From Shigella phage ESh27: 64,000 nt of DNA. Of the stretch, positions 48,694 to 52,787 are shown one piece after another. The notes beneath the pieces are model-generated. The model saw nothing but the letters and a program-made list of their open reading frames with translations. It was not told where the DNA came from and did no database searches. Position numbers and translations under genes: made by a program. The DNA is taken from sequence record ON528737; one strand, written 5' to 3'. Numbering within the stretch: the stretch's first letter is position 1; each line of letters starts with the position of its first letter.

Positions 48694-49371
48694 ATGAGCA
48701 CTGATGTTATTATAGATTTTGAAACATTCGGCAATACATCAAAAGCTGCTGTTATTGACCTTGCGGTTATTGCATATAATTCCGACCCTGAAGTTGTTGA
48801 AACATTTGAAGAACTTGTTCAACGAGGTAAGCGAATTAAATTTAATTTAGCTTCTCAGAAAGGGAAGCGAGTTTTCGCTAAATCCACTATGAAATGGTGG
48901 AAAGAACAATCAGCAGAAGCACGTAAAAACCTGGCTCCGTCTGAAGACGATGTCACTACGCTTGAAGGCATTAAAATCTTTTTAGATTATTGTCGAGCTA
49001 ATAAAGTTGACCAATGGAAATCACAGATGTGGTGCCGTGGTATGAGCTTTGACTTCCCGATATTGGTCGATTTGATTCGTGATCTCTATCGTGATGAAGG
49101 TGTTCTTGAACCAGATATTGATACTGATAAATTAGAACCGGTTAAATTCTGGGCTCAACGCGATATTCGTACGGCAATCGAAGCTTACTCGTTGACACGA
49201 GGATTAAGTATGTGTCCATTACCGATGGGTACGCTAAAAGGATTCGTTGCCCATGATAGTATTCATGATTGTGCTAAAGATATTTTGATGTTAAAATATG
49301 CTCAGCGTTATGCGCTTGGTCTTGAAGATGTCCCTGAGAATCCTGACCCGTTAAGTGTAAAACAGCGATAA
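48694..49371 (+). CDS. dexA: exonuclease A (DEDD 3'-5' exonuclease)
   Basis: 225 aa; N-terminal IIDFETFG exo motif; position after dda as in T4. Confidence 0.8.
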   Translation: MSTDVIIDFETFGNTSKAAVIDLAVIAYNSDPEVVETFEELVQRGKRIKFNLASQKGKRVFAKSTMKWWKEQSAEARKNLAPSEDDVTTLEGIKIFLDYCRANKVDQWKSQMWCRGMSFDFPILVDLIRDLYRDEGVLEPDIDTDKLEPVKFWAQRDIRTAIEAYSLTRGLSMCPLPMGTLKGFVAHDSIHDCAKDILMLKYAQRYALGLEDVPENPDPLSVKQR

Positions 49372-49376
49372 AATCA

Positions 49377-49406
49377 GTTTACAACCAAGGATGGTTGGAG
49401 TATAAT
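49377..49406 (+). promoter_or_regulatory. early-type promoter within stem-loop
   Basis: GTTTAC-N18-TATAAT; same 25-mer core as 7285 and 8305. Confidence 0.5.
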
Positions 49407-49437
49407 CTTTCTATCTTAACCAAACAGGAAAAACATT

Positions 49438-49932
49438 ATGAATATCAATACTACGGCTACTTACATCCTGAAAGACGAAAAACAAATTAACTGGTATGGT
49501 GCTTCAGTGCGAGCTTACGAAAAGTTTTGTGAAATTTTAGGCACCACTCAAGGTAATAGTTTCACTATTGTTAACTTCATCAAACAAGCTGAAGGCCCTT
49601 GGTTATTCTTAGAAATTAAAAATTCATATGGTACAATTTCCACTACCGCCCTTCCAAGCACAGACTTTGAACTGTTGATTGAAGAAGTAGAACCCGTTAA
49701 AGACATCTGTATTGATATGGATATCGCTTGTATGTACGGTACTCTGATTAAGCCTATTGAGCCTACTGATTTGCTGTGTAAATATGTTTCAATTCGACGC
49801 CCGTTCGCAGGTCCAGTAAATGGATGGGTAACTGACCAGTGGATTGAAGACGGTGTTGAACTTCTGAACGTTGTTCATGCAGGTGATTTTAGTGTAGTTC
49901 CACGTAGTGCTGTGGTTAATATCCTTAATTAA
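49438..49932 (+). CDS. hypothetical protein (paralog family, copy 1)
   Basis: 164 aa; C-terminal GWVTDQWIEDGVELLNVVHAGDFSVV shared with the next two genes. Confidence 0.55.
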   Translation: MNINTTATYILKDEKQINWYGASVRAYEKFCEILGTTQGNSFTIVNFIKQAEGPWLFLEIKNSYGTISTTALPSTDFELLIEEVEPVKDICIDMDIACMYGTLIKPIEPTDLLCKYVSIRRPFAGPVNGWVTDQWIEDGVELLNVVHAGDFSVVPRSAVVNILN

Positions 49933-49935
49933 TGT

Positions 49936-49964
49936 TGTACATCCAAGGATGGATGGAGTATAAT
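49936..49964 (+). promoter_or_regulatory. early-type promoter within stem-loop
   Basis: TGTACA-N17-TATAAT; variant of the caaccaagg...tataat core. Confidence 0.5.
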
Positions 49965-49994
49965 GAATTCAATTTAAACAAAGAGAGAGAAATT

Positions 49995-50480
49995 ATGAAT
50001 CTTGGTATTATTGGTGAAATCGTTCGCGTATCTAACAAATCTCGTTCTAAAGCCGCAGGAAAATTGGTCGAAGTTGTAAGTATTCAACTTAAAGAAGGCG
50101 TTAAAGATGAAGATTCTGAGGTAAAAGTTCGTATTATTCCTAGTTTTGGGACACAGGAAACCAAATTTGCTTATGTTCGTGCAAAGTTCTTGGAAACGCC
50201 TGTGAGTAGTGCTTTTGCTTCAAGAGAAAAAGTTGAATCCACAGAGCATAATGCACAGTTCAAATGGGCCTTGTGTAAAGGTGTTGAATTCCAGACCGAT
50301 AAAGAATTTGACTTCATCGATGAATATGGTTATCCAAGCAAAACTGATACTATGTGTGGCTTCATTAGTGACCAATGGGTTGAAGATGGTGAAAAGTTAT
50401 ACAATATCGTATTCTTAGGTGACTTCCGAGTTGTTAAAGAATCTGAAATCACTCGCTATGTGTCTCCTCGTAAAGCTTAA
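49995..50480 (+). CDS. hypothetical protein (paralog family, copy 2)
   Basis: 161 aa; N-terminal SRSKAAGKLVEVVS and C-terminal GFISDQWVEDGEKLYNIVFLGDFRVV. Confidence 0.55.
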   Translation: MNLGIIGEIVRVSNKSRSKAAGKLVEVVSIQLKEGVKDEDSEVKVRIIPSFGTQETKFAYVRAKFLETPVSSAFASREKVESTEHNAQFKWALCKGVEFQTDKEFDFIDEYGYPSKTDTMCGFISDQWVEDGEKLYNIVFLGDFRVVKESEITRYVSPRKA

Positions 50481-50489
50481 GGAATTATT

Positions 50490-50909
50490 ATGAATATTGC
50501 AAATCTCTCTATTGGTGATTATGTACACGTATCAGATGCTTCTCGCTCTAAAGTTGCCGGGAAGTTGGTTGAAGTTCTTTCTGTAAGTTGTGGACTCTTT
50601 AGTCCACATCAAGTTAAAGTTCGTGATGCTGATGGCAACATTGGCTACGTCTCAAGCCAATTCATTGAACCAGAAGAAAAAGCGTTCAAATGGGGACTAT
50701 GCAGATCAGTTTCTGTTGAAAAAGACCACGAATTCACTATTGCTGCGGCAACCGATGGAACGCCATGGAAAACTAAGCAAATCGCCGGATTTATTAGCGA
50801 CCGTTGGGTAGAAGATGGTGTTAAGCTTTATAACATCGTTTTCGCTGGTCAGTTCATGGTAGTTCCTGAATTCCAAATTAAAAAATATAGCCCGGCTGCT
50901 TTCGCATAA
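50490..50909 (+). CDS. hypothetical protein (paralog family, copy 3)
   Basis: 139 aa; SRSKVAGKLVEVLS and GFISDRWVEDGVKLYNIVFAGQFMVV. Confidence 0.55.
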   Translation: MNIANLSIGDYVHVSDASRSKVAGKLVEVLSVSCGLFSPHQVKVRDADGNIGYVSSQFIEPEEKAFKWGLCRSVSVEKDHEFTIAAATDGTPWKTKQIAGFISDRWVEDGVKLYNIVFAGQFMVVPEFQIKKYSPAAFA

Positions 50910-50913
50910 AGTT

Positions 50914-50962
50914 GTTTACTTCTCCTCTGGTTTTGATATTATAACCATATCAACCAGAGGAG
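50914..50962 (+). promoter_or_regulatory. early-type promoter within stem-loop (PeSL-like)
   Basis: GTTTAC-N17-TATTAT inside an 11-bp inverted repeat ctcctctggtt/aaccagaggag; distal arm supplies the SD. Confidence 0.5.
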
Positions 50963-50968
50963 AATAAT

Positions 50969-51217
50969 ATGTTAGTTTACCGCGTAGAACGTAGTTTTTG
51001 TACTCAACGTGAATCATTACCAGGAATTGCTATTGAAGACGGTAAAGCCGTCAGAATTTGGGAAACCTCTTGGAATAAAGAACCTCGTTCGCCATACGGT
51101 TGGTCGGGCACCGACAACTCTGAAGAAACATGGGAGTTCCTTGATAAACATGGAATACTCTCAGGTAATTTCTACCATCACGGCGACAACTATAATGTCC
51201 CTAATCGTCGAAGATAA
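50969..51217 (+). CDS. hypothetical protein
   Basis: 82 aa; GAGGAG SD. Confidence 0.5.
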   Translation: MLVYRVERSFCTQRESLPGIAIEDGKAVRIWETSWNKEPRSPYGWSGTDNSEETWEFLDKHGILSGNFYHHGDNYNVPNRRR

Positions 51218-51482
51218 ACTCCTTGAACAAAATATCTTAAGATACTATAGAATTGAGCACACATTTGAATTGAGTGAAGATTGGGCTCAAGGGTTCTATT
51301 TTGGATTTGAAAGTGTTGACGCGGTTTATGCATGGTTTGATGACCAGGTAGATGTTGAACTCTTGAAAGCTAAAGGATACTACATCGCGGTCTATGAAGC
51401 ACCTGATTTCATCCTCGGAAGTTGTCAATTAGTGTTCAGACGTTCATTGGCAGAACAAGTTGATTTTATTTTGCTAAAATGA
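51195..51482 (+). CDS. hypothetical protein (overlaps upstream gene, no SD)
   Basis: 95 aa from first in-frame ATG; 23-nt overlap with 50969..51217. Confidence 0.35.
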   Translation: MSLIVEDKLLEQNILRYYRIEHTFELSEDWAQGFYFGFESVDAVYAWFDDQVDVELLKAKGYYIAVYEAPDFILGSCQLVFRRSLAEQVDFILLK

Positions 51483-51539: not shown

Positions 51540-51767
51540 ATGAAACGTCAAATCATTAAAAACGTAACTACTGATTCAAACATCGATGAGTTTGAAGATG
51601 TTCTGTTTAATCCTGATTTAGTTGTTGTACAGAAAAACTGGACTGAATTTTTATGCTACACTGAAGTGGTTTACGTTTACGAAAAACTCGGTGATGAAAT
51701 GCCTATCTATGGTATCTTCCGTGAAATCACTGAAAATGGTACAACTTATTGGAAGGAAACTTACTAA
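51540..51767 (+). CDS. hypothetical protein
   Basis: 75 aa; AAGAGGAGAA SD. Confidence 0.45.
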
Positions 51768-52177
51768 TGGCTAATAAATTCCGCGTTAACTCATGGTACC
51801 AATTTAAAGATAAACGTGCCCAAGAAGAGTTTATTAAAAACCACACTGATAATGGGATTTATGCACGACGTCTTGGCATGGAACCATTTAAAGTATTAGA
51901 TGTTGACCATCTTGGACGACCTACTAAAATTGTGACATCTACTGGCATGGTTGGATACGCAACTGGTGGTGATATTCTTGATGAAAACTTTATCTGGCTC
52001 TCTACTAGTGAAGCAGAGTTTTTTGATGAAGTTGGAAATCCATATCAAGCGTCTGAAGAGCAAGACTCTGGAGAACTTGATGAATTGTCCGAATTTCCGG
52101 TGATGACGATTACTATCGAAAATAACGACCAGGCATGGTCTTTGTATCAAATGTTGAAAACACATTTTAAGGAATAA
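51767..52177 (+). CDS. hypothetical protein
   Basis: 136 aa; TAATG overlap. Confidence 0.5.
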
Positions 52178-52361: not shown

Positions 52362-52787
52362 ATGGCTTTTAAAGGTTTTGAAATTGGCAAGAAATACCGT
52401 ATTATCAAAGGTCAAGAAGATAATTTCTTGAGAATTCTTAATACGACTGGTAAACGTCTTAATACTAATCTGCATACTACTTTATTGTCCAAAGATTTTA
52501 TTGTGGAAGAGATGATTGGTTACGGCGTTTCGGTTATTGCTGTAGAAGCCGTAGGCGATTATGGCCGAACTATTCATAGTATGCAAGGTGATATTCTGCT
52601 TTATGGTGCAGAATTTAAATTCTTTGAAGAAGTTTCGGAACCAGATACAGCTGTCGATTTCAAAAAAGGCTCTATAGAATTTGTTGATGGTTCGGTGATC
52701 GTATCAGGCGATGTGGTCATTACAGTTAAAAGTGAACAAGGGCGTTTGGCTGCAATTGATGCACTTCAGAAAATTAAATTTAAATAA
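52362..52787 (+). CDS. hypothetical protein
   Basis: 141 aa. Confidence 0.5.
   Translation: MAFKGFEIGKKYRIIKGQEDNFLRILNTTGKRLNTNLHTTLLSKDFIVEEMIGYGVSVIAVEAVGDYGRTIHSMQGDILLYGAEFKFFEEVSEPDTAVDFKKGSIEFVDGSVIVSGDVVITVKSEQGRLAAIDALQKIKFK

Follow-up and report, generated by a model that had tools for sequence, protein, structure and literature searches.

Genes, promoters and hairpins of the cluster

The cluster of interest lies within a 64,000-nucleotide stretch of Shigella phage ESh27 (sequence record ON528737), hereafter the window. An earlier note on this DNA had singled out three adjacent genes encoding proteins of 164, 161 and 139 aa; three adjacent open reading frames of exactly these lengths were found on the plus strand at the positions concerned. 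The genes, together with the elements that flank them, are as follows:

49378–49406, + strand: promoter P1, serving copy 1; TTTACA-17-TATAAT, sigma-70/T4-early type, 11 of 12 consensus positions.
49438–49932, + strand: copy 1, 164 aa, ortholog of motB.1; putatively LSm/SH3-like N-terminal domain (NTD, residues 1–85), disordered linker (86–106) and C-terminal domain (CTD, 107–164; DNA 49756–49929).
49936–49964, + strand: promoter P2, serving copies 2 and 3; TGTACA-17-TATAAT, early type, 10 of 12 consensus positions.
49995–50480, + strand: copy 2, 161 aa, ortholog of MotB; basic KOW-like NTD (residues 1–66), linker and shared CTD (about 88–161; the piece modelled is 50238–50477).
50490–50909, + strand: copy 3, 139 aa, a second MotB-like gene (RB69 ORF010c type); KOW-like NTD and shared CTD (50673–50906).
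50915–50964, + strand: boundary element downstream of, and outside, the triplet; a promoter-like site overlapping the 5' part of a hairpin.

Copy 2 has an alternative reading of 182 aa, beginning with an ATG at 49932. We favour the ATG at 49995 as the start because the promoter falls within the longer reading: the –10 box of P2 (49959–49964) lies inside it. The alignment with T4 MotB also begins at 49995, and the N-terminus specified from there agrees with that of T4 MotB, so that the 182-aa form is unlikely. Copy 3 is shorter than T4 MotB because it lacks the linker.

The spacers of P1 and P2 are nearly identical. No promoter of its own was found for copy 3, the start of which lies 9 nt past the stop of copy 2; given this short gap and the absent promoter, copies 2 and 3 belong to a single transcription unit. 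The proposal that each gene has its own stem-loop promoter therefore fails on both counts: there are two promoters for three genes, and the supposed stem-loops ahead of copies 1 and 2 are no more stable than folds of shuffled sequence (z –0.25 and –0.71, respectively). The sole real hairpin lies after copy 3, with arms at 50920–50931 and 50953–50964 (–24.6 kcal/mol, z –5.2; none of 200 shuffles folds as well as 50920–50964). The promoter-like site that overlaps it (TTTACT-16-TATTAT, 50915–50942) belongs to the next gene, which is motB.2-like.

The 3' arm of this hairpin pairs the GAGGAG Shine-Dalgarno sequence of the motB.2-like gene (ATG 50969). It is predicted that transcripts reading through from upstream would mask the ribosome-binding site in the hairpin, and that transcripts from the internal promoter, being without the 5' arm, would leave it exposed. 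Comparable arrangements of hairpin and internal promoter occur at some T4 genes (e.g., soc, e and I-TevI). The motB.2-like gene itself (phrog_1106, 50969–51482) carries an 11-bp deletion (CTACAGTAAAT) relative to phage Shf125875; it is present in the window as an 82-aa open reading frame plus an out-of-frame one of 157 aa, where relatives encode an intact protein of 174 aa. A pseudogene, a strain-specific mutation and an assembly error are alternative explanations of this disruption.

At the DNA level, phiC120 and Shf125875, both of them Mosigvirus (RB69-like) phages, share ~97.7% identity with the window. The gene order of the window—dda, dexA, copies 1-2-3, motB.2-like, cef, goF, 39.2, a goF paralog (ORF005c-like) and gene 39—agrees with the annotated Shf125875 and RB69 records. 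The three genes thus occupy an early region flanked by dexA and cef, as expected for the MotB family in T-even phages; this stretch is non-essential according to the T4 literature. The same region holds a second paralog pair: goF (51767–52177) and the RB69 ORF005c-like gene (52362–52787), both of which match phrog_622 (7e-38 and 1e-21, respectively). In addition, the N-terminal part of the ORF005c-like product has a weak match (3.8e-4) to phrog_2333, to which copy 1 belongs. Kim et al. [quoted passage not shown]

Homology of the three copies and their published relatives

The similarity in the C-terminal block shared by the three proteins is significant. With compositional adjustment, BLASTP aligns copy 1 with copy 2 at 3e-10 and with copy 3 at 2e-10, in both cases restricted to the C-terminal 29–36 residues; between copies 2 and 3, the alignment is full-length (3e-31, 44% identity). 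All three proteins pass the gathering cut-off (25 bits) of the Pfam motB family, PF17613, scoring 35.1, 179.8 and 83.5 bits for copies 1, 2 and 3, respectively. The copy 2 match (4.7e-53) takes in profile positions 5–157 of 162, and the copy 1 match (1.5e-8; residues 84–159, profile positions 78–153) the CTD half only. Among the PHROG families, copy 1 falls in phrog_2333 (1.8e-82) and copy 3 in phrog_1671 (6e-51, profile positions 2–166).

A multiple alignment, as the earlier note had recommended, reveals that the homology of copy 1 exceeds the 30-residue motif: across the family, it extends over the entire CTD of ~56 aa (residues 109–164). Invariant positions are distributed across all strands of the domain, which carries an invariant D-x-W-x-E-[DE]-G turn. 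The possibility that the motif is a product of compositional chance among unrelated genes can be dismissed with near certainty, in light of the adjusted BLASTP values, the Pfam scores of all three proteins, and the same predicted fold obtained from independent models (see below).

A further motif that had been noticed near the N-terminus, SRSK(A/V)AGKLVEV, was confirmed in copies 2 and 3, where it is located within the KOW-like NTD. These two copies show the two-domain MotB architecture, namely a KOW-like NTD with SRSKxAGKLVEV followed by the CTD. The full architecture is absent from copy 1, of which the CTD half alone matches; its NTD is of a different kind (phrog_2333).

The linker of copy 1 contains an element of its own. 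Residues 93–106 (49714–49755), in a region modelled with low confidence, carry a conserved motif, D-[MIF]-D-[IVL]-x-x-x-Y-G-T-L-I-K-P, which was found in 83 of the 264 family proteins collected (e.g., in relatives P0149, P0152, P0156 and P0158). In some relatives, the motif forms the extreme N-terminus and is followed by an NTD of another type. A short linear interaction motif and a recombination joint are both possible interpretations.

Existing records already name the three genes. The Shf125875 record labels copy 1 'similar to RB51 and RB69 motB.1', copy 2 'transcription factor MotB' and copy 3 'similar to RB69ORF010c; similar to motB'; the RB69 record has 'MotB-like' for the last of these. 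Judged by sequence, then, the triplet consists of orthologs of motB.1, motB and RB69 ORF010c ("MotB-like"). Section 3.2 of Patterson-West et al. (2021, PMC7827196) describes a CTD common to MotB and MotB.1, and regards one of the two genes as probably a duplicate of the other; RB69 is reported in the same paper to have two motB copies and one motB.1. The cluster is an annotated and published paralog family, and its detection in the earlier note is a rediscovery. Orthologs of copy 3 (at least 80% identity) are present in ~206 of the 765 phage records with a MotB-like gene.

Comparison with T4 gives the following picture. Copy 2 is the ortholog of T4 MotB (57% identical to T4-type MotB, P0036): the two proteins are equal in length, share the layout of KOW-like NTD and CTD, and are both encoded between dexA and cef. 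They differ in charge, T4 MotB having a pI of 9.2 and copy 2 being acidic overall (pI 5.6). T4 has a single KOW-type motB gene, whereas the window has two, copy 3 also possessing the T4 MotB architecture. Copy 1 is the ortholog of T4 MotB.1, with which it shares the CTD, the linker motif and a homologous NTD (BLASTP 2e-9); it is 47% identical to the intact T4-type MotB.1 (P0131) over 99% of its length. Gene order differs between the two phages, being motB.2-motB.1-motB in T4 and motB.1-motB-motB-like-motB.2 in the window. The RB69 cluster (motB.1, motB, ORF010c) belongs to the same genus and has the same three-gene arrangement as the window.

Copy 1 is intact at 164 aa, in contrast to the reference versions of its ortholog. 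The T4 reference MotB.1 is frameshifted to 119 aa, the intact T4-type protein having 143 aa. In T4 NC_000866, motB.1 (locus L001, 2643–3151, minus strand) contains an extra G midway through the shared CTD, reading GGATTGGAAGATGG as compared with GGATT-GAAGACGG in the window; the product ends in ...DQWIGRWR, and the remaining CTD is readable in the next frame. T4 'wild' (KJ477684; locus L003, 598–1029) contains an intact, unannotated 143-aa motB.1 whose product is identical to P0131, a protein that occurs on 256 contigs. The RB69 reference motB.1 (locus L032, 3377–3873) is split by two extra Ts in T runs, giving open reading frames of 132 aa and 29 aa, and an extra A in an A run was observed in the motB.1 of an IMG/VR locus (L017, 3177–3681). 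The frameshifts of the reference motB.1 genes lie inside, or just before, the shared CTD.

Published MotB.1 experiments used NC_000866.4 coordinates and give the size of the protein as 13.8 kDa, and T4 MotB.1 gave neither a phenotype nor an effect on RNA (Kim et al. 2025, PMC12152347). The negative assays were performed with the frameshift-truncated, 119-aa reference form. The absence of most of the shared CTD from this form is of modest practical interest to T4 early-protein researchers.

Fold, charge and distribution of the shared C-terminal domain

The CTD is predicted to form a five-stranded, SH3-type barrel of the Tudor/chromo/KOW class. The AlphaFold2 model of the copy 2 CTD, built from a 65-sequence alignment spanning all architectures, shows five beta strands at a pLDDT of 92.7. 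A full-length model of copy 1, made from a different alignment (pLDDT 78; low confidence in linker residues 86–106), gives the same fold class. Structure prediction, which the earlier note had suggested as a check, hence agrees between independent models. The predicted fold has the SH3-type, five-stranded barrel that characterizes the Tudor or 'Royal' superfamily. A Foldseek search of the PDB puts the same fold on top, with the 53BP1 Tudor domain in first place at an E-value of about 0.02, which is not significant and offers weak corroboration only. Neither copy 2 nor the CTD profile matched any PDB sequence at E ≤ 10, and no structure of a family protein has been solved; the CTD is classed as fold-similar, rather than as a member of the Tudor family, because a sequence relationship is undetectable. 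The likeness to Tudor, chromo-barrel, PWWP and KOW barrels (53BP1 Tudor, MRG15 chromo, Spt5 KOW, and the C-terminal Tudor domain of UvrD/PcrA) is accordingly one of fold only. In PMC7827196, the CTD is labelled an OB-fold or cold-shock-like DNA-binding domain on the basis of HHpred. There are no OB-fold or cold-shock proteins among the top 60 structural matches of the CTD model; on the model, the domain looks like a Tudor/chromo-type barrel instead, which revises the HHpred label.

The charge of the domains bears on which of them binds DNA. The CTDs are acidic to neutral, with pI values of 4.65 (copy 1), 4.68 (copy 2) and 6.87 (copy 3). Of the two KOW-like NTDs, only that of copy 2 is clearly basic (pI 9.7), the NTD of copy 3 having a pI of 6.7; copy 1 is acidic over its whole length (pI 4.5, net charge –9). 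With the positive charge of copy 2 concentrated in the NTD and the CTD acidic or neutral, we infer the NTD to be the main seat of nonspecific DNA binding. The DNA affinity of MotB would, by this reasoning, come mainly from the KOW-like NTD, and the CTD would serve in association or docking. The pI of 6.7 weakens the idea that a basic KOW head binds DNA in the case of copy 3.

Two further readings of the CTD have to be weighed. Certain Tudor, PWWP and chromo-type barrels bind DNA, and the CTD of T4 MotB is near neutral (pI 7.9). Either MotB domain was held to be a possible DNA binder by the 2021 authors (PMC7827196). It is conceivable, though on balance doubtful, that the CTD is a nucleic-acid-binding module, as in their OB-fold/cold-shock-like proposal, with all three proteins coating DNA and the NTDs merely modulating. 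Somewhat more speculative is a strong version of the docking idea: the CTD may be a Tudor-like docking or oligomerisation module, not a DNA-binding OB fold, particular to T4-like phages, and a common handle by which interchangeable heads, whether KOW-like, LSm-like or of another kind, reach one shared partner or join a hetero-oligomeric, nucleoid-remodelling complex. If this adapter reading is true, the three paralogs cooperate rather than act redundantly, and the T4 MotB.1 assays that proved negative would have to be redone with the intact protein of 143 aa, most of the CTD being absent from the 119-aa form. An acidic, barrel-type CTD also changes the choice of domain to mutate in order to abolish DNA binding.

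The CTD has a narrow distribution. An exhaustive profile (HMM) search of 1.84 billion cluster representatives returned 32 matches, four of them spurious; the remainder are proteins of 43–251 aa. The four rejected sequences (P0257, P0259, P0261 and P0263; 306–842 aa) each match in 4–7 partial stretches, where unrelated repeats such as 'GYATEQWVxxKxYLT' mimic a portion of the motif. This leaves about 28 genuine 50%-identity clusters for the CTD among the 1.84 billion proteins. All distant members sampled consist of a KOW-like NTD plus the CTD, and that form is therefore probably ancestral.

Within this range, the CTD is found on a variety of partners. Across T-even phages, it is fused to at least four unrelated types of NTD, and MotB.1-type CTDs are 72–88% identical to that of copy 1 although the NTDs are unrelated. 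Locus arrangements also differ. A survey of 25 IMG/VR loci plus reference genomes gave (i) RB69-like loci, with three CTD genes, (ii) T4-like loci, with motB.2, one variable-NTD CTD gene (143–181 aa) and MotB, (iii) another group, with a CTD protein of 181–251 aa and MotB, and (iv) a further set, with a single gene of 125–166 aa.

Three database proteins (P0035, P0045 and P0055) begin like copy 2 or T4 MotB but have a C-terminal part of the copy 3 type. Their breakpoints differ, and one lies exactly at the conserved GFISDQWVEDG core. The sequences suggest unequal exchange (deletion/fusion) between tandem paralogs; since some of the three are on short metagenome contigs, it is also possible that they are assembly chimeras.

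Selection, mosaic exchange and likely role of the cluster

The earlier note had inferred tandem duplication with divergence, and this is well supported: the homology is significant, and synonymous divergence between the copies is saturated (dS > 1.7), the conserved core included, so that the duplications are old. Recent gene conversion between the copies in the window is unlikely, as saturation extends even to that core. Among 7–9 Mosigvirus genomes, gene-wide dN/dS (pairwise, NG86) is 0.12, 0.24 and 0.15 for copies 1, 2 and 3, respectively, as compared with 0.04 for dexA, 0.04 for cef and 0.13 for goF. These values indicate that all three copies are maintained by purifying selection. Maximum dS in the same genomes rises from 0.08 in dexA to 0.32 in copy 1, 0.62 in copy 3 and 0.72 in copy 2 (positions 48694–50909 of the window against loci L002, L004–L006 and L029–L032). 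Such sharp differences between neighbouring genes indicate that Mosigvirus phages have exchanged the motB segment in mosaic fashion.

Within the family, tight DNA binding and an effect on H-NS footprints are known for T4 MotB only. According to Patterson-West et al. 2018 and 2021 (PMC6070864, PMC7827196), it is an abundant early protein that binds DNA tightly and without sequence specificity, whether the DNA is unmodified or contains glucosyl-hydroxymethyl-cytosine. It alters the H-NS footprint, doubles burst size and up-regulates 75 host genes, about one third of which are in the H-NS regulon. [quoted passage not shown] Interference with H-NS is a theme shared with T7 gp5.5 and T4 Arn, but these bind H-NS directly, whereas MotB associates via DNA only (PMC7827196). 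No homology of the triplet proteins to T7 gp5.5 or T4 Arn was detected in Pfam or PHROG scans.

It had also been proposed that the duplicated genes are typical of counter-defence or host-range factors, and one form of this idea has the paralogs diversifying, each tuned to another host defence or variant. Part of the idea stands. MotB perturbs H-NS silencing, and its effect on H-NS might be interpreted as relieving xenogeneic silencing. Genera differ from one another in the copy number, gene order and NTDs of this stretch, paralog chimeras exist, and the dS of copies 2 and 3 (up to 0.6–0.7), far above that of dexA, points to mosaic exchange. However, the comparison of dN/dS across related phages, a check proposed in the earlier note, yielded a signature of purifying selection and not of an arms race, and the shared CTD is the most conserved portion of the proteins, nearly invariant across genera. 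We know of no defence system that is targeted by MotB. In laboratory hosts, moreover, burst size is about 2-fold lower when T4 is deprived of motB, and no cost is seen when it is deprived of motB.1. Scanning the three proteins against PADLOC and NCBIfam yielded no matches; the libraries are without anti-defence models, and these scans are hence uninformative. On balance, diversification against host defences appears improbable.

Our preferred reading, to which we assign a probability of roughly 80%, is that the triplet is the motB.1 – motB – motB-like early cluster of an RB69-type (Mosigvirus) T-even phage, with two-domain products, a MotB-like role and the CTD as a common adapter. Each product combines a variable N-terminal module, a flexible linker and the common CTD of about 56–75 aa, the module of copy 1 being an acidic, putatively LSm/SH3-like NTD related to GoF. 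P1 serves copy 1, and P2 copies 2 and 3. By analogy with T4, copy 2, and probably copy 3, would do the same job in this phage as T4 MotB, an early and abundant protein that changes the seating of H-NS on DNA and de-represses part of the H-NS regulon. The CTD would act as the adapter through self- or hetero-association, or by docking on one shared partner; in this way it would link the DNA-binding heads of copies 2 and 3, and possibly an RNA-binding head in copy 1, to the same place.

The triplet itself is of little consequence, and the side results are of modest practical value for work on T4 early proteins. More generally, a modular family confined to T4-like phages provides a compact system for studying domain shuffling among early host-takeover proteins.
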